IMG/VR virus record: IMGVR_UViG_2698536590_000002
Direction: 5' to 3' (one strand)
Length of the DNA stretch: 11,786 nucleotides
Source of the DNA: a virus
Lineage: Duplodnaviria > Heunggongvirae > Uroviricota > Caudoviricetes
Positions 769 to 11,786 of this stretch are shown one piece after another (the first letter of the stretch is position 1; every line of letters starts with the position of its first letter). A program made the position numbers and the translations under genes. The notes below the pieces were generated by a model. That model made no database searches and was not told where the DNA came from. It worked only from the letters and a program-made list of their open reading frames with translations.

Positions 769-1350
769 TTACCCTATAGGTGCTACTGGCCATTCAATAT
801 CCGGTGCAGTTAATGTATCAACACGGTTCAGCAACACCCGATACTTTTTCCAGGCTTCCAGCAACAAGGTTTCTTCCTCCGTTGCGATTTCCAGATCTAC
901 AGCATCCTGAAGTGGCGCAATATGCTCACTGGCTACCTGCATCAGGCTGTTTTTTGTTTCTTCTGCCTCCCGGATCCGGAACAGTTTTTCTGCTTCCGTA
1001 TCCTTCACCCAGGCTGTGCCGTTCCACTTCTGATATTCCCCTCCCGGCGACAACCAGGTAACATTTTCCGGTAACGGACCGAGTTCAGAAATAAATAACG
1101 CGTCGCCGGAAGCCACGTCATAAACCGTTTTACCCCGATGGTCTTCAACGAGATGCCACGATGCCTCATCACTGTTGAAAACAGCCACGAAGCCTGCCGG
1201 AATATCTGGTGGTGCAATATCGGTACTGTTTGCTGGCAGACCTGTATGAGGCGGAATATATGCGTCACCTTCACCAATAAATTCATTAGTTCCGGCCAGC
1301 AGATTATAAATTTTTATGGTCCGTGCTTGTTCACTCATTCTGAATGCCAT
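769..1350 (-). CDS. tfa: tail fibre assembly protein (lambda Tfa / T4 gp38-like chaperone family)
   Basis: 193-aa ORF starting [50 protein letters not shown], recognised as the conserved Tfa N-terminal domain of lambdoid prophages. ATG overlaps the stf stop (TAATG), indicating translational coupling. Confidence 0.85.
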
Positions 1351-6126: not shown

Positions 6127-6545
6127 GAATATCTGATCCCTTCTGATACTGTCATCAGCATTACGTCATCCTCCGTCATGTCCGCCACATCCGGGGAAGC
6201 GGGGATAACTTCATTCCCGTCCGGGCCAAAGCGGACACCTCCGGCAAGCCCTGCCGCTTTCTGCATCAGCACATCATCTTCAGGCTCTTCGTCAGCCTCG
6301 CGCCGGTTCAGCAGACTGAAATCCAGCGGATGCATATCCGGATCGCTGAAAAACAGGCTGAGCACGGTGTACGTCAGCCCGGAAAAGTGCATATCCAGCA
6401 GAACATCATGAAAATAATGGGTACTGTAAAAGCGGTGCCAGTCGGCATACTCCGTGGATGACATCCCGGCAAGCATGGCACGCCAGTCGGGTCGCCCCAT
6501 CTCACGCGCCAGTTTCAGGGCAAAACTCAGCTCACCGTCGAACAC
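6123..6545 (-). CDS. T: tail assembly chaperone T frame, expressed as a G-T fusion by -1 frameshift
   Basis: -1 frame relative to G with no independent ATG; reads (V)[39 protein letters not shown]...VSEGIRYS, matching lambda gpT. Confidence 0.8.
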
Positions 6546-6949
6546 TTTCCCGCAGAAACAGGCTCTGCGGGCCCGGCGTCCTCTGTCTGTTCAGGGGCAT
6601 TATTCACCACAAACTCATACATACCAGACAGCCGGTACACCACGTTTTCAGCATGAGAAATTGCCTCCGTGGGCCAGGTGGTAAGCACTTCCTGCTCAAT
6701 CTGTTTAACGGCTTCATTCATGGACGGCATCTGCGTCTTCTGCGGATGGTTATGCCACAGGGACATCGCCACCAGAAACGCGCCGGTTCTGATGGCGTCT
6801 TCCACAGTAAACTTCCGGTTGCTGTCTGACTCCGCCTGTTCTGCCTGCCGTTTCATCAGGGCGAGATGCTCAATGCGCTGCAGGGCTGACAGTTCAGAAA
6901 GCGTGACGGTCACACCGTTATGTTCAAATGATTCGGTTTTCAGGAACAT
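6527..6949 (-). CDS. G: tail assembly chaperone G
   Basis: 140-aa ORF MFLKTESFEHNGVTVTLSELSALQRIEHLALMKRQAEQ...[11 protein letters not shown], recognised as lambda gpG (same length). RBS GGAGAG upstream; sits between the V stop and the T frame. Confidence 0.85.
   Translation of the reverse strand: MFLKTESFEHNGVTVTLSELSALQRIEHLALMKRQAEQAESDSNRKFTVEDAIRTGAFLVAMSLWHNHPQKTQMPSMNEAVKQIEQEVLTTWPTEAISHAENVVYRLSGMYEFVVNNAPEQTEDAGPAEPVSAGKCSTVS
6545..6551 (-). other. programmed -1 ribosomal frameshift slippery heptamer G GGA AAG (G to G-T)
   Basis: Plus-strand CTTTCCC at 6545-6551 is GGGAAAG on the coding strand, in G frame as G_GGA_AAG (codons A-G-K of ...SAGKCSTVS). This is the canonical lambda G/T slip site, and the T frame opens exactly here. 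Confidence 0.8.
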
Positions 6950-6964
6950 CGCTGACTCTCCGGA

Positions 6965-7375
6965 TTAACTGGCGGTGACGGTAATTTCTGCAACCGCAGC
7001 AAACTCACCATTACCGGATACAACCGGAATGTTGACCTTGCCTGCAGCAACGCCGTTCACGGTGATGGTCATACCACTGACCGACACGGTGGCTTTTGTT
7101 TTATCCGCAGACACCGCACGAAAGCTCTTGTCGGTTACGCCCTCCGGCTGGAAGGCCACGGTCAGCGTGGTGCTCTGCCCTTTCACCACCGAGGTGCTGG
7201 CAGGCGTCACGGTCATGCCGGTTGCCGCTGTTACCGTGCTGCGATCTTCTGCCATCGACGGACGTCCCACATTGGTGACTTTCACCGTGCGGGTGATCAC
7301 TTCCTTCGCCGTCACCGCCTTACCGATACTGCTGACCCAGCCACGGAACACATCGATCGTGCCGTTCGGGAACCG
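6965..7375 (-). pseudogene. V: major tail protein V, C-terminal half only (includes the Ig-like domain); N-terminal ~115 codons deleted
   Basis: Frame reads [47 protein letters not shown]...AEITVTAS, matching lambda gpV from about residue 115 to its end. An in-frame TAG sits immediately upstream (7379-7381); there is no ATG or credible RBS, only an internal GTG at 7349-7351. Confidence 0.8.
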
Positions 7376-7434
7376 GCACTACCTGCTGAGGTGCCATAGG
7401 CGACACCCGTTGTTAACTTATCCATGGATTTCAT
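7372..7434 (-). pseudogene. N-terminal remnant (~21 codons) of a phage-21-type pinholin (S21 / EssD-like), fused out of frame to V
   Basis: Strong RBS GAGGTGGGG then ATG at 7434, encoding [21 protein letters not shown]. This matches the dual-start (MKSM) N-terminus of the phage 21 pinholin as I recall it ([26 protein letters not shown]...). Similarity stops after SAG (~7372) and the frame runs into V sequence out of frame. Confidence 0.55.
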
Positions 7435-8024
7435 AACCCCACCTCGCAGACAAAGCGGGTGTAAATTGAGGGAATACAACGTATCGCAAAAAAGCAGAAA
7501 CGTAACAGACTCGGAGTCAGTGAATAACTCAGGTATTGAGTTATCAGCTAATATCGAGACTCAAAAAATGGAAAAACCAGCTCGACGGCGGGTTTAAGCT
7601 GTGTGACGAAGTAACCACTCTTAACAGCATAACCAATTTTTTACGTACGTAAACCACTGAATGATATTTATGAGAATGCTACCGAGTGTTCAAAACACCA
7701 CCACAAATACATAAGAAAACCTCAACAAATAACCAATAAATAATTTCCGGCGTTATTTTTAGTTAATTTAAATTAAACCATCGAATTATAGACCCCCCCC
7801 ATAAATAACAGCCATTAATATAAATTAGCTAATAGGTTTATTTTTGTTCAAATAAGAGCCATAAATAGGTTTCGATAGAAAAAGTTCAGATAAAAATAGA
7901 GATCTACTTCACAAATTAAATGAGAAACTAAAACTTACATCTTGAAATAATCACATTGATTAGATGAATATTTATCGCGCAGTGACATCATTTTTTAATA
8001 ATAGTTCAAAAAAAAGGGCTCACG

Positions 8025-9107
8025 ATGAAAAAATTAACAGTGGCAATTTCTGCTGTAGCTGCATCAGTACTGATGGCGATGTCTGCTCAGGCAGCTGAAA
8101 TTTATAATAAAGACAGTAACAAGCTGGATCTGTACGGGAAAGTTAATGCTAAGCACTACTTCTCCTCTAATGATGCAGATGATGGTGATACTACTTATGC
8201 CCGTCTTGGCTTCAAAGGTGAAACCCAAATCAACGATCAACTGACTGGTTTCGGTCAGTGGGAATATGAATTCAAAGGCAACCGCGCTGAATCTCAAGGT
8301 TCCTCCAAAGATAAAACCCGTCTTGCCTTCGCTGGCCTGAAATTCGGTGACTACGGCTCCATCGATTACGGCCGTAACTACGGTGTAGCATACGACATCG
8401 GTGCGTGGACTGACGTCCTGCCAGAATTCGGTGGTGACACTTGGACTCAAACAGATGTGTTCATGACTGGTCGCACCACTGGTGTTGCAACTTATCGTAA
8501 CAACGACTTCTTTGGTCTGGTTGATGGTCTGAACTTTGCTGCTCAGTATCAGGGTAAAAATGACCGCACTGACGTAACTGAAGCTAATGGTGATGGTTTC
8601 GGTTTCTCCACTACTTATGAGTATGAAGGATTCGGTGTAGGTGCAACCTATGCTAAATCTGATCGCACTAATAATCAGGTTATCTACGGTAACAACGGTC
8701 TGAATGCTTCTGGTCAAAATGCTGAAGTATGGGCAGCTGGTCTGAAATATGATGCGAACAACATCTATCTGGCCACCACCTATTCTGAAACCCAGAACAT
8801 GACTGTTTTTGGTAATAACCATATTGCCAACAAAGCACAAAACTTCGAAGCTGTTGCACAATATCAGTTCGACTTCGGCCTGCGTCCATCCGTTGCTTAC
8901 CTGCATTCTAAAGGAAAAGACTTGGGTGTTTGGGGTGATCAGGACCTGGTTGAATATGTTGATGTAGGTGCAACCTATTACTTCAACAAAAATATGTCCA
9001 CTTTTGTTGACTACAAAATCAACCTGATTGATAAGAGCGATTTCACGAAAGCATCTGGCGTTGCTACCGATGATATCGTTGCTGTAGGTATGGTTTACCA
9101 GTTCTAA
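8025..9107 (+). CDS. nmpC: phage-borne general porin of the OmpC/OmpF/PhoE family (NmpC / Lc type)
   Basis: 360-aa ORF with signal peptide [23 protein letters not shown], mature N-terminus [17 protein letters not shown], porin hallmarks ([43 protein letters not shown]) and C-terminal VYQF. Matches what I recall of NmpC/Lc. Divergent from and adjacent to Q, as in DLP12. Confidence 0.9.
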
Positions 9108-9243: not shown

Positions 9244-9270
9244 GGGGGCGTTGCAACGCCCCATTTTTAA
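9244..9270 (+). terminator. rho-independent terminator downstream of nmpC
   Basis: Perfect palindrome GGGGCGTTGCAACGCCCC (9245-9262) followed by ATTTTTAATAATTTTT. Three further strong hairpins lie between the nmpC stop and this site (9132-9148, 9157-9178, 9183-9204). Confidence 0.65.
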
Positions 9271-9295
9271 TAATTTTTAGTAAACAACTGGCATA

Positions 9296-9679
9296 TTAAT
9301 TAGAGTTATTAACAACGATATCCATCTCTAACCGGATATCTAATGCCATTAACATCCCTTCAATTATGCCCTCAGCCTTCTGTAACCTTTTCCCGATATA
9401 ACCATCAGAGCAGCAATGCTTACCTGCCAGTGACATGAATGTCATACCGACTACATAATAATCTACTAATAAATCGTGCAAATCGCTGTTGTTCTTTTTC
9501 AGACGGGCCATGCACCCGCAAATAATCATCGCGTCATCGTCACAACATTGCGGGCGAGATTTTACTTTTGAAGTAATTAATCCCTTAAAACCGGCGGCAA
9601 TGGACGACCAGGTCACATCTTCATGATTATTAGCCGCCCACGCTCCCCAACGCTCAAGAACCATCTGAATATCACGCAT
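9296..9679 (-). CDS. quuD: late-gene antitermination protein Q (phage 82 / DLP12 QuuD-like)
   Basis: 127 aa from ATG at 9677-9679 (RBS GGAG; the track ORF extends upstream from a TTG). Reads [64 protein letters not shown]..., recognised as the 82-type Q family with its Cys-rich zinc motif. Gene order rusA-ylcG-Q-nmpC matches DLP12. Confidence 0.8.
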
Positions 9680-9764
9680 CAACTTACTCCACAAAAATCA
9701 GACCAGAACGCCAATTACAAGCAAAAATCAACAAAACAGTATTAGTTGATTGTTATCTCTGACT

Positions 9765-9905
9765 TCATACTCCTGCTCCTGTCAGGGTTTTGGCGTAATT
9801 CTTCAGTATTCGGTAATCGGTCAAAACAGAACCGGGGAAACGATATAAGCGCAGATGCCCCCAGCGGTGGCGAAGAAGTTCTGCCATATAAAACTCAAAC
9901 ATCAT
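9765..9905 (-). CDS. ylcG: small DLP12 YlcG-like protein (46-47 aa), not in the ORF track
   Basis: Hand translation of the minus strand between rusA and Q gives [46 protein letters not shown] with stop at 9765-9767. The ATG overlaps the rusA stop (ATGATG over TGA at 9902-9904). Matches my recollection of YlcG. Confidence 0.55.
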
Positions 9906-10264
9906 TCATTCCCAATTTCGGTGATGGTCAGTTCCAGCCTCCCACCTTTGGTAACAGGCATCTTCACAACGCGGTAATCAACGACCTGAGCATCATCCAG
10001 CCAGAAACCTGCTTTAGTGAGTGCGTCAAAAGCGGCTTTTTGCAGATTATCCAGGTCACGGCGACGGCGATCCGGCATGTGGCACTCAATGCGGATTTTC
10101 ACAGGCATAGCCAGGCCGATATCCAGCATTGCGTTTTTAATGATTCGGGCGACGTTATCGCGGTATGCCTGCCCCTCTGCGCTGACGTGCGTGCGCCCGC
10201 GATTATGGCGGTAATAGCGATTATTGCTCGGAGGCCAGGGTAATGTGATGCTGTAGGTATTCAC
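9902..10264 (-). CDS. rusA: crossover junction endodeoxyribonuclease RusA (Holliday junction resolvase)
   Basis: 120-aa ORF (GTG start with RBS AAGAGGGGG) reading [119 protein letters not shown], essentially the E. coli RusA sequence as I recall it. Confidence 0.85.
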
Positions 10265-10386
10265 GCCTTAATAACCCCCTCTTTCAGCCAGATAACCTGT
10301 GTTCTCGCCATACCTTCCAGCGCGCATTCTTTTGCATATGCAGCATCGACTTGCTTGGCATGCCCTTTAGGCGCGATCACTTTCGT
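10261..10386 (-). pseudogene. ybcO: 3' remnant of ybcO-like (DUF1364) gene; last ~41 codons only
   Basis: Minus-strand frame ending in TGA overlapping the rusA GTG (GTGA) reads [41 protein letters not shown]; the last ~28 residues match the YbcO C-terminus as I recall it. An in-frame TAG lies at 10387-10389 and no start or matching N-terminal sequence lies upstream. Confidence 0.5.
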
Positions 10387-10494
10387 CTACTCCGTTACAA
10401 AGCGAGGCTGGGTATTTCCCGGCCTTTCCGTTACCCGAAATCCCCTGAAAGCACAGCGGCTGGCTGAGGAGATAAATAATAAACGGGGAGCTGT

Positions 10495-10686
10495 ATGCAC
10501 AAAGCATCTCCTGTTGAGTTAAGAACGAGCATTGAGATGGCACATAGCCTCGCTCAAATTGGAGTCAGGTTTGTGCCAATACCAGTAGAAACAGACGAAG
10601 AATTTCATACGTTAGCCGCATCCCTTTCACAAAAGCTGGAAATGATGGTGGCGAAAGCAGAAGCAGATGAGAGAGACCAGGTATGA
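10495..10686 (+). CDS. 63-aa phage early-region protein of unknown function (possibly lambda orf63-like)
   Basis: ORF MHKASPVELRTSIEMAHSLAQIGVRFVPIPVETDEEFHTLAASLSQKLEMMVAKAEADERDQV with good RBS GGGGAG 4 nt before the ATG; its stop overlaps the next start (ATGA). The lambda orf63 assignment rests on size and position only. Confidence 0.6.
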   Translation: MHKASPVELRTSIEMAHSLAQIGVRFVPIPVETDEEFHTLAASLSQKLEMMVAKAEADERDQV

Positions 10687-10766
10687 CAACCACTGAATGC
10701 ATTTTTCTGGCAGCGGGCTTCATATTCTGTGTGCTTATGCTTGCCGACATGGGACTTGTTCAATGA
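10683..10766 (+). CDS. 27-codon hydrophobic micro-ORF (single predicted transmembrane helix), not in the ORF track
   Basis: ATG at 10683 overlaps the upstream stop (ATGA) and its own TGA overlaps the next ATG (ATGA at 10763-10766). Encodes MTTTECIFLAAGFIFCVLMLADMGLVQ. Supported only by the double translational-coupling geometry and hydrophobicity. Confidence 0.3.
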   Translation: MTTTECIFLAAGFIFCVLMLADMGLVQ

Positions 10767-10978
10767 CACCTCAGCAGGAAAACGCCCTTCGCAGCATTGC
10801 CCGTCAGGCTAATTCTGAAATCAAAAAAGCCAGACAGCAGTTTCCGGATAAAAACGTCGATGACATTTGCCGTAGCGTACTGAAGAAGCACCGCGAAACG
10901 GTAACGCTGATGGGATTCACACCGACTCATTTAAGCCTGGCGATCGGCATGTTAAACGGCGTCTTTAAGGAACGGTGA
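10763..10978 (+). CDS. 71-aa phage early-region protein of unknown function
   Basis: Reading from the ATG at 10763: MTPQQENALRSIARQANSEIKKARQQFPDKNVDDICRSVLKKHRETVTLMGFTPTHLSLAIGMLNGVFKER. The track ORF (from 10697) has a longer N-terminal extension, but 10763 is the coupled start. Confidence 0.55.
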   Translation: MTPQQENALRSIARQANSEIKKARQQFPDKNVDDICRSVLKKHRETVTLMGFTPTHLSLAIGMLNGVFKER

Positions 10979-11000
10979 GCATGAAAAACAAAATCATCAT

Positions 11001-11021
11001 GGAGCTACAGGCTCCTTTTTT
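11001..11021 (+). terminator. weak terminator-like hairpin plus T-tract
   Basis: GGAGC TACAG GCTCC followed by TTTTTTATT. Only a 5-bp stem. It lies inside a possible 29-codon ORF (10981-11070), which I therefore consider less likely to be real. Confidence 0.3.
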
Positions 11022-11076
11022 ATTATTCGCATTCACCCTCAAGCGTATTAACCAACAATTCAGGGATTAATGAAAG

Positions 11077-11298
11077 ATGGCAGACATCATTGATTCAGCA
11101 TCAGAAATTGAAGAATTACAGCGCAACACAGCAATAAAAATGCGCCGCCTGAACCACCAGGCTATATCTGCCACTCATTGTTGTTAGTGTGGCGATCCGA
11201 TAGATGAACGAAGACGCCTGGTCGTTCAGGGTTGTCGGACTTGTGCAAGTTGCCAGGAGGATCTGGAACTTATCAGTAAACAGAGAGGTTCGAAGTGA
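11077..11298 (+). pseudogene. TraR/DksA-family C4 zinc-finger protein gene (lambda Orf73-like) interrupted by an in-frame amber codon
   Basis: Frame reads MADIIDSASEIEELQRNTAIKMRRLNHQAISATHCC then TAG (11185-11187), then CGDPIDERRRLVVQGCRTCASCQEDLELISKQRGSK and stop. Across the TAG this aligns with the TraR motif C-x-x-C-G-N-P-I-P-E-A-R-R...C-x-x-C as I recall it, with the TAG at the second x of the first CxxC. Confidence 0.6.
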
Positions 11299-11783
11299 GC
11301 GAAATTAACTCTCAGGCACTGCGTGAAGCGGCAGAGCAGGCAATGCATGACGACTGGGGATTTGACGCAGACCTTTTCCATGAATTGGTAACACCATCGA
11401 TTGTGCTGGAACTGCTGGATGAACGGGAAAGAAACCAGCAATACATCAAACGCCGCGACCAGGAGAACGAGGATATTGCGCTAACAGTAGGGAAACTGCG
11501 TGTTGAGCTTGAAACAGCAAAATCAAAACTCAACGAGCAGCGTGAGTATTACGAAGGTGTTATCTCGGATGGGAGTAAGCGTATTGCTAAACTGGAAAGC
11601 AACGAAGTCCGTGAAGACGGAAACCAGTTTCTTGTTGTTCGCCATCCTGGGAAGACTCCTGTTATCAAGCACTGCACTGGTGACCTGGAAGAGTTTCTGC
11701 GGCAGTTAATCGAACAAGACCCGTTAGTAACTATCGACATCACTACGCATCGCTATTACGGGGTTGGTAGACTGGCCCCCTGA
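11295..11783 (+). CDS. Ea22-like early-region protein with predicted coiled coil
   Basis: 162-aa ORF; GTG start overlaps the upstream TGA (GTGA), with RBS AGAGG 8 nt upstream. MSEINSQALREAAEQAMHDDWGFDADLFHELVTPSIVLELLDERERNQQYIKRRDQENEDIALTVGKLRVELETAKSKLNEQ has heptad-like character. The Ea22 assignment is from memory of prophage proteins carrying that label and is tentative. Confidence 0.5.
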   Translation: MSEINSQALREAAEQAMHDDWGFDADLFHELVTPSIVLELLDERERNQQYIKRRDQENEDIALTVGKLRVELETAKSKLNEQREYYEGVISDGSKRIAKLESNEVREDGNQFLVVRHPGKTPVIKHCTGDLEEFLRQLIEQDPLVTIDITTHRYYGVGRLAP

Positions 11784-11786
11784 ATC

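Follow-up and report, generated by a model that had tools for sequence, protein, structure and literature searches.

A recurrent TA dinucleotide at an early-region deletion joint

The 11,786-bp stretch analyzed here (hereafter the window; IMG/VR record IMGVR_UViG_2698536590_000002) is the complete contig LOOJ01000065.1 of Escherichia coli assembly GCA_001575515.1 (locus L168) and represents a heavily eroded lambda-like E. coli prophage. Its interval 10261–10494 probably holds a single deletion joint of this defective prophage, one end of which falls on a recurrent, nonrandom TA hot spot in orf60a, the DUF1317 gene situated just downstream of exo. As a scar, the joint is a product of ordinary, routine prophage decay, and the element is a further case of the familiar DLP12-like cryptic lambdoid prophage without immunity and replication genes.

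The joint is defined by two collinear alignments to the intact isolated phage ev243 (NC_049955), in which window 9246–10369 corresponds to ev243 41500–40377 (98.5% identity) and window 10368–11272 corresponds to ev243 29520–28616 (96.6%). These overlap at the TA at 10368–10369; the BLAST overlap is the same with lambda, to which window 10368–11767 aligns at 98.4% (lambda 31323–29923), and spans 10367–10369 with strain ML35. The left parent at the break reads ...GCATGCCCTT-TA-ccggcaatc... (...GCCCTT-TA-CCGGCAAT...) in the nin-region spacer between a stump of ybcO and ninX, and the right parent reads ...ATATCCGGG-TA-GGCGCG... at codon 10 of orf60a. After the deletion, a single TA is left, and the deletion is seamless with a 2-nt TA overlap. 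The features that meet here are as follows:

9902–10264, minus strand: rusA, Holliday-junction resolvase gene, intact (Pfam RusA, E 7e-23, profile 1–123/124)
10261–10350, minus strand: 3′ stump of ybcO (DUF1364), 29 codons plus stop (BLAST; Pfam YbcO 62–92/92)
10351–10367, no strand: nin-region spacer, 17 nt; intact relatives continue ...TA^CCGGCAATC... to ninX (alignment to ML35 and ev243; here and below, ^ marks a joint)
10368–10369, no strand: TA common to both parents, the deletion joint; right parent lambda 31323/31322 (BLAST overlaps)
10370–10522, plus strand: orf60a/DUF1317, codons 11–60 plus stop (Pfam DUF1317 10–60/60, E 2e-31)
10495–10686, plus strand: orf63/DUF1382, full length (Pfam DUF1382, E 3e-31)

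Relative to ev243, 10,856 bp are absent, and we favor their loss from an ev243-like ancestor in one piece. The absent ev243 stretch is annotated with codons 1–10 of the DUF1317 gene (orf60a), exo, a bet-type annealing protein, gam, kil, an ea10-like gene, ral, sieB, N, rexB, rexA, cI, cro, cII, O, P, ren, ninB, a dam-type methylase, ninE, and ninX. Having lost the genes from exo to ninX, the prophage therefore cannot repress, replicate, or read through into the flanking operons. The initial annotation of this DNA had described a nin-region block abutting a distal PL block, with the immunity, replication, and Red region deleted, and had listed N, cI, cro, cII, O, P, exo, bet, and gam as absent; the comparison bears out both statements, all nine genes being annotated in the missing ev243 stretch. 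The same annotation had placed the switch of strand and the beginning of the PL block at 10495, which is instead the start of orf63/DUF1382, the block beginning at 10368/10370 inside orf60a.

The orf60a TA is shared by many independent deletions

The right breakpoint, lambda 31322/31323 (...CCGGG-TA-GGCGCG), is nucleotide-exact with at least 16 distinct left partners verified in DNA. All 16 DNA-verified joints read X^TAGGCGC(G/A)ATCAC, with the first retained base at X^TAGGCGCRATCAC. A first comparison covered the few complete E. coli genomes in which both flanks lie close together, and it gave a different left partner each time: the ybcO spacer in the window, dam′ in ML35, ybcO′ (near codon 45) in ET776, ren′ in BS74R-D, and ybcN′ in LR-64-1, where the DLP12-type prophage concerned sits at argU. 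Further genomes, variant DUF1317 proteins, and patterns scanned for in IMG/VR and metagenome contigs added partners upstream of full ybcO, in a replication-type gene, in a Mu/P2-like baseplate gene, in a tail-fiber gene, at a second point in ybcN, upstream of ybcN, in P′ and Q′, upstream of dam, in a myovirus tail gene, and in rusA′. About 10 more partners are represented by DUF1317 N termini unrelated to the native MTHPHDNIRV that switch exactly at x(L/I/V)^GAITF (xTA^GGC in DNA).

The hot-spot prophages sit at the lambda attachment site (att-lambda)/ybhC, at argU/fimZ, next to proA, and at other sites, and the right flanks of these loci differ at up to 29 of 620 nt; flanks so diverged indicate independent events rather than one inherited or copied scar. 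Of 5,426 complete genomes, the site is present in 3,559, and 3,187 retain it intact at least once; the partial matches to the intact site stop exactly at the TA, from either side. We infer that the deletion was not a random illegitimate event and that the orf60a TA recurs as a point of break or exchange in many independent lineages. Neither the hot spot nor its reciprocal form in K-12 nor the TA signature described below was found described in the literature searched, which does not prove that no description exists.

Adjacent deletions promoted by insertion sequences (ISs) classically share one fixed end while the far end varies, in both directions, and the lambda crg cryptic lysogens reportedly carry IS2-promoted deletions that remove the prophage immunity region. 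An IS might thus once have occupied the orf60a TA, made adjacent deletions of various lengths on either side, and then been lost cleanly, for instance through the IS-excision enhancer (IEE) or, for a TA-duplicating element of the IS630 type, by precise excision. Both IS2 and IS5 show activity in these prophages. IS629 has inserted near the site twice, 7 nt upstream in contig L060 and ~17 nt downstream in the protein fusion P0022, and IEE is reported to remove IS3-family elements and to induce deletions. The crg and the O157 IS629/IEE deletions resemble those described here in their fixed end, their variable far end, and the removal of the immunity region. We nevertheless regard this history as improbable. 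Not one of ~170 loci has an IS at the TA itself, the two IS629 insertions occupy other nucleotides, TAGGCGCG is directly adjacent to the left partner in each of the 16 joint types, and the same point is used in diverged lineages, whose flanks leave no room for a single ancestral insertion; clean loss would be required in each of more than 25 lineages. Scans of IMG/VR and of the metagenome and genome collections with IUPAC patterns specifying a non-wild-type base beside the TA returned only deletion joints, single-base variants of the wild-type site, and chance 18-mers in unrelated metagenome-assembled genomes (MAGs). In the 596-Gb genome collection, a short pattern has to specify more than 18 bases; the 18-mer CACGATAATATCCGGGTA turns up by chance in MAGs from many unrelated phyla (L146–L161). 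The IS629/IS1203-type element of L060 (IMGVR_UViG_651053023_000002) lies at ~11,190, between exo and orf60a (...GGTTCA^ATCCGGG TAGG).

A second recurrent TA is found 45 nt downstream of the hot spot (window 10413; CTGGG-TA-TTTCCC) and is used in PK8566 and in two protein variants, the left partners of which are also found joined to the main hot spot (loci L003, P0067, and P0077). Intact copies of the main hot spot and of the 10413-equivalent site both read GGGTA. The lambda record J02459.1 (L171) carries an unlabeled misc_recomb feature at 31266..31267, inside orf60a and 56 nt from the hot spot, which is probably the end point of a classical deletion or substitution.

Partner sites carry a TA signature

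To characterize the lost side of the joints, we used the 26 partner sites for which the unbroken sequence was recoverable from homologous loci. TA occupies the break in 24 of the 26 (background 5.3% per position, p 6e-29). It is followed by CC in 11 sites (background 7% of TA sites, p 5e-7) and preceded by GG in 4 more, and ~20 of the 26 fit when one spacer base is allowed (TAnCC or GGnTA); the hot spot itself reads CCGGG-TA-GGCGCG. Similarity between partner sites amounts to only about 5 nt, that is, TA plus CC or GG, and no bases are added or missing at the joints. Left sites can be used more than once. The site CCCTT-TA-CCGG serves in the window and also in FG92-1, where the right partner differs, and the site CAGCCAGA-TA is joined to three right partners, namely the hot spot (P0018-type, a joint known from protein only) and two other TAs (PK8566 and A10, both joints known in DNA). 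The joint in 52F4 ends ...CTGGTA^.

Random illegitimate recombination of the microhomology-mediated end-joining type, with end points shared by chance or by common descent, has in its favor that the overlap is only 2–3 nt, as in RecA-independent end joining, and that other joints of such a kind occur, including a joint between J′ and T′ in the window (1-nt overlap) and that of FG92-1 (6-nt TACCGG direct repeat). As at the hot spot, end joining leaves a short overlap and loses the intervening DNA. It is, however, very improbable: at least 16 partners meet the same nucleotide where scattered end points would be expected, the overlap is almost invariably TA (24 of 26 partner sites) and not simply some short or GC-rich match, and the joints occur between diverged flanks at different chromosomal sites.

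Several observations weigh against a nonrandom, single-step origin and have to be set beside this evidence. The J′/T′ joint, a second deletion joint at window 6135 that connects T′ (lambda 10525) to J′ (lambda 18268), has a 1-nt G overlap and no TA, and the signature therefore belongs to early-region deletions and not to every scar. The enrichment for CC or GG is partial, applying to about half of the sites. GGTA/TACC occurs ~1.5 times per kb on each strand, and a motif this common cannot by itself account for the hotness of one TA. The site could not be linked to any recombinase, transposase, or nuclease, and no inversion joint using the site was found in the scans, though a recombinase acting on a palindromic TA should make them. 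Finally, ML35 and the window show 0 differences in 470 nt to the left and 634 nt to the right, with the joint at the same TA, and ML35 retains 968 bp that are absent from the window.

The likeness to ML35 would fit a two-step history, in which an ML35-type joint (dam-methylase′^TA-orf60a′) formed first and a 968-bp deletion from CCCTT-TA-CCGG to GGCT-TA-GGCG then removed dam′, ninE, and ninX, ending again on the old joint. Other sets of joints can be read likewise: the P0018-type, PK8566, and A10 joints share the left end CAGCCAGA-TA with progressively more lost rightward, and the K-12 type (b) and intD type (a) joints share the left end ...CCGGGTA. We consider the two-step history rather unlikely. 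The late-region deletions of ML35 and of the window are different and non-nested, and their common ancestor must therefore have been far more complete. Between L006 and L126, which look nested, 20 of the 620 positions in the flank differ, and the left flanks of PK8566 and A10 diverge by 3.3%, which argues for independent events in both cases. Moreover, a second deletion landing on the same 2 nt would still need a hot-spot mechanism. We thus favor an independent origin of the window and ML35 joints from an intact ancestor.

Candidate mechanisms

We infer that the early-region breaks were made or guided by something that prefers the orf60a TA. The mechanism we favor would be a cleavage or strand exchange that has a preferred site and an overlap of 2 nt, TA. 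Candidates would include a recombinase of the serine or IS110 type working on pseudo-sites, a TA-specific transposase using pseudo-ends, or a nuclease that generates TA ends for rejoining. Partner sites would be chosen at TA dinucleotides, with CC or GG enriched alongside, and selection for cells rid of the lethal early genes would then fix the product. Selection surely helps because the deletions remove kil, N, O, and P and the longer ones also the lysis genes. Selection alone was rejected as an explanation, as it can yield neither the single-nucleotide precision nor the TA/CC signature on the lost side.

Serine recombinases acting on quasi- or pseudo-sites (Cin on quasi-cix, phiC31 on pseudo-att) and the IS110 bridge recombinases combine one preferred site with many weak partners; the central dinucleotide of 2 bp has to match between partners, the joining is seamless, and products of either reciprocal type can form. 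The hot spot resembles these systems in having one site, many weak partners, a common dinucleotide, and seamless joints, and the same dinucleotide is present in both parents of the window joint, as 2-bp-overlap recombination requires. Reciprocal-type joints, in which the left side of the hot spot is retained, are seen in K-12 and relatives. The hot spot differs from the serine and IS110 systems in that no recombinase gene, cognate full site, or inversion was found and in that similarity between partners is limited to ~5 nt; among intact phages, no natural inverted or direct partner of the site exceeded 19/33 matches.

RusA offers a candidate encoded beside the joint. This resolvase cuts on the 5′ side of CC where strands cross over (PMC1636454). 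In the largest joint class, CC comes directly after TA on two strands, the top one of the left parent and the bottom one of the right parent, and these are exactly the strands whose 3′ ends are kept. Prophage RusA might cut 5′ of CC in branched DNA during abortive induction, with the 3′ TA ends pairing and being ligated. Resolution of a Holliday junction between inverted TACC motifs was rejected, since by our reasoning it predicts an inversion and not a deletion, and only the nick-and-join variant was kept. That variant, too, seems a poor prospect. RusA does not cut plain duplex DNA (PMC1636454), the rule fails for the reciprocal K-12 type and for roughly half the partner sites, one of the hot-spot joints is in L018, a prophage with ninG/rap and no visible rusA, and the proposal gives no reason for the dominance of one site.

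Further candidates were considered and set aside. A gyrase-type 4-nt stagger would give a GTAG or nTAC heteroduplex and not the observed nTA-G. Local secondary structure is unconvincing, the GGGTAG...CTACTCC fold of the top strand being weak (z −2.25; bottom strand z −1.1). The sequence GTAGGCGCGAT resembles the head of the repetitive extragenic palindrome (REP), GTAGGCCGGAT, and was weighed as a target of the REP-associated tyrosine transposase (RAYT) or of an IS621-type element; no REP palindrome follows, the crossover is at TA and not at a CT/AG core, and membership was rejected. Deletion by Int at a secondary site is at odds with the use of the same point in prophages with at least three different integrases or attachment sites.

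A tentative reading, to which we give somewhat less than even weight, is that this decay is programmed or strongly channeled, with a candidate enzyme acting at orf60a codon 10 that would excise the immunity, replication, and killing genes in one step by joining the site to TA(CC) and (GG)TA sites elsewhere in the prophage, leaving a harmless, fixed remnant of an active prophage. Such an enzyme might be a recombinase with a 2-nt overlap, a TA-specific transposase using pseudo-ends, or a nuclease directed by DNA structure, RusA being an example. Taken by itself, the joint records the disarming of a lambda-like prophage in one E. coli strain, with its porin, tail-fiber, lom, and exo-xis genes retained. 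That independent prophages at different sites lost their lethal early regions at one TA, with a common sequence signature at the opposite end, suggests that domestication is at least partly channeled by a specific molecular process. On the tentative reading, much of the decay of E. coli lambdoid prophages, including DLP12, would be programmed or strongly channeled rather than random erosion. The hot spot could then reveal a new activity on phage DNA, be it a host defense, a phage nuclease acting on its own genome, or a stray recombinase; it could also be of practical use as a marker when cryptic prophages are dated and classified, and it would account for how the textbook element DLP12 is built.

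Relationship to DLP12 of E. coli K-12

Like the element in the window, DLP12 is lambdoid, carries the rusA-ylcG-quuD-porin module, and has its immunity and replication genes deleted, such that PL-distal and PR-distal remnants abut. Both of its early-region joints (L132; MG1655 566,0xx–566,4xx) fit the TA pattern. The exoD′/xisD′ joint uses the same orf60a TA in the reciprocal direction, retaining the end of exoD′ and orf60a codons 1–10 (...CCGGGTA^CCTCAC), with ...CCGGGTA joined to CCTCACAAC... upstream of xisD′; in a relative, ...CCGGGTA is joined inside intD. The exoD′/peaD′ joint has a TA overlap with TACC/TAACC, ...CTCG-TA-AACC in P and ...GTT-TA-CCTCCCGGG in exo. Unlike the element in the window, DLP12 sits at argU, has a different integrase, and keeps a piece of exo and of P as well as full ybcN-ninE-ybcO. 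Furthermore, DLP12 lost orf60a through the xis-proximal genes, whereas the window keeps the genes from orf60a to the xis side.

The ybcO stump and the truncated orf60a

Upstream of rusA on the minus strand, an open frame of 41 codons (10264–10386) is closed by an in-frame TAG at 10387–10389, as the initial annotation had stated and the translation confirms. That annotation had taken the whole frame for a remnant of ybcO of about 41 codons. The open frame has this length, and homology to ybcO extends over only ~30 codons, the last 29 codons plus the stop (10261–10350). The Pfam YbcO match covers residues 8–38 on profile positions 62–92/92 (E 0.003; 17.9 bits, under the curated cut-off of 29.9 bits), and the stump peptide corresponds to the C terminus of K-12 YbcO, to which it is identical from VDA(G/A)YAKECAL... 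onward. A partial DUF1364 is annotated at the stump in ML35 and 52F4. A full-length ybcO (~92 positions) with a start codon is not present in the interval, and 10264–10494 contains no open reading frame (ORF) or Pfam match for a repressor or replication gene; either finding had been named as one that would contradict the initial annotation.

The loss of similarity noted near 10350 is real, in that BLAST alignments to loci with full ybcO end there, but it is not the left breakpoint of the deletion. The true left break lies 17–19 nt beyond the stump (10367–10369), in the spacer, and the joint is at 10368–10369. In the viable phages ev207, ev017, PhiR57_1, PhiR63_2, 2G7b, and ev243, the stump and the sequence adjoining it run into ninX at 99.3–99.6% identity, an arrangement also found in strains ML35 and 52F4. 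The truncation of ybcO is therefore older than the deletion and represents a mosaic scar in a working nin region.

On the plus strand, the frame 10244–10522 is indeed open and is preceded by TAA, but it is not the end of exo or of any other fully deleted gene. What had been proposed to be the 3′ end of a deleted upstream gene is orf60a/DUF1317 minus its first 10 codons, a gene downstream of exo, and the part of the frame to the left of 10368 is meaningless antisense rusA/ybcO sequence. The window thus holds a truncated orf60a (profile 10–60/60) in which the native N terminus MTHPHDNIRV is replaced, and a complete gene, with the 60-residue profile and the native start overlapping the exo stop, is absent. 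A chance TTG at 10355 opens a 55-aa ORF that is annotated by NCBI as a DUF1317 family protein; a protein 100% identical to it (P0001) is found on 25 contigs.

Organization of the remainder of the prophage

Contigs with the identical joint (L165 and L166) run on rightward through ea8.5, xis, and int to ybhC, while the window ends in IS2 before int is reached. From these relatives, the element lies at the lambda attachment site, and the prophage is integrated at att-lambda, next to ybhC. The two blocks flanking the joint, Q-ylcG-rusA-ybcO′ on the minus strand and orf60a′-orf63-...-ea22 on the plus strand, are each collinear with ev243 and lambda. The element is thus flanked by host DNA, retains the native relative gene order and orientation on both sides, and has no repressor, cro, N, O, or P, as is typical of a cryptic lambdoid prophage. 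The minus strand carries tfa, a side tail fiber gene, lom, the C terminus of J, T, G, and part of V; an intact ompC/nmpC-type porin gene follows on the plus strand (8025–9107), beyond which Q (quuD-like), ylcG, and rusA lie on the minus strand. The features outside the immediate joint region are as follows:

9296–9694, minus strand: Q-type antiterminator gene, quuD-like (Pfam Phage_antitermQ, E 4e-53; quuD annotation in collinear loci)
9765–9905, minus strand: ylcG, 46-aa ORF (YlcG annotated at the equivalent position in ML35, ET776, and L165)
10763–10978, plus strand: conserved 71-aa gene of the exo-xis region, no Pfam family (ORF; hypothetical protein there in all collinear loci)
11077–11298, plus strand: TraR/DksA zinc-finger gene, inactivated by an in-frame TAG (Pfam zf-dskA_traR, E 5e-8, read-through product)
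11295–11767, plus strand: Ea22-like gene, cut by IS2 (Pfam Ead_Ea22, E 7e-29)
11768–11786, plus strand: left end of IS2 (TAGACTGGCCCCCTGAATC), which is the contig end (same as the ends beside annotated IS2-family transposase genes in PK8566 and ML35)

The stop codon in the TraR/DksA gene, TAG at 11185–11187, falls between two Cys pairs, and the gene is intact in L165, which has the same joint. The Ea22-like gene encodes 162 aa in the window versus 182 aa in L165, and the IS2 end at 11768–11786 is the probable cause of the assembly break at that point. Rfam detected no RNA family in the joint region; elsewhere, it gave a match to IS009 (RF02111; 228 bits) at window 809–1007 on the minus strand, inside the tail-fiber assembly gene. 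The V′-G-T segment (6135–7376) is 99.8% identical to lambda, much nearer than the tail-fiber region (77–95%). Finally, V′ (lambda 9284) is joined in window 7376–8024 to sequence upstream of the porin gene, and all head and lysis genes are missing at this V′/porin joint.

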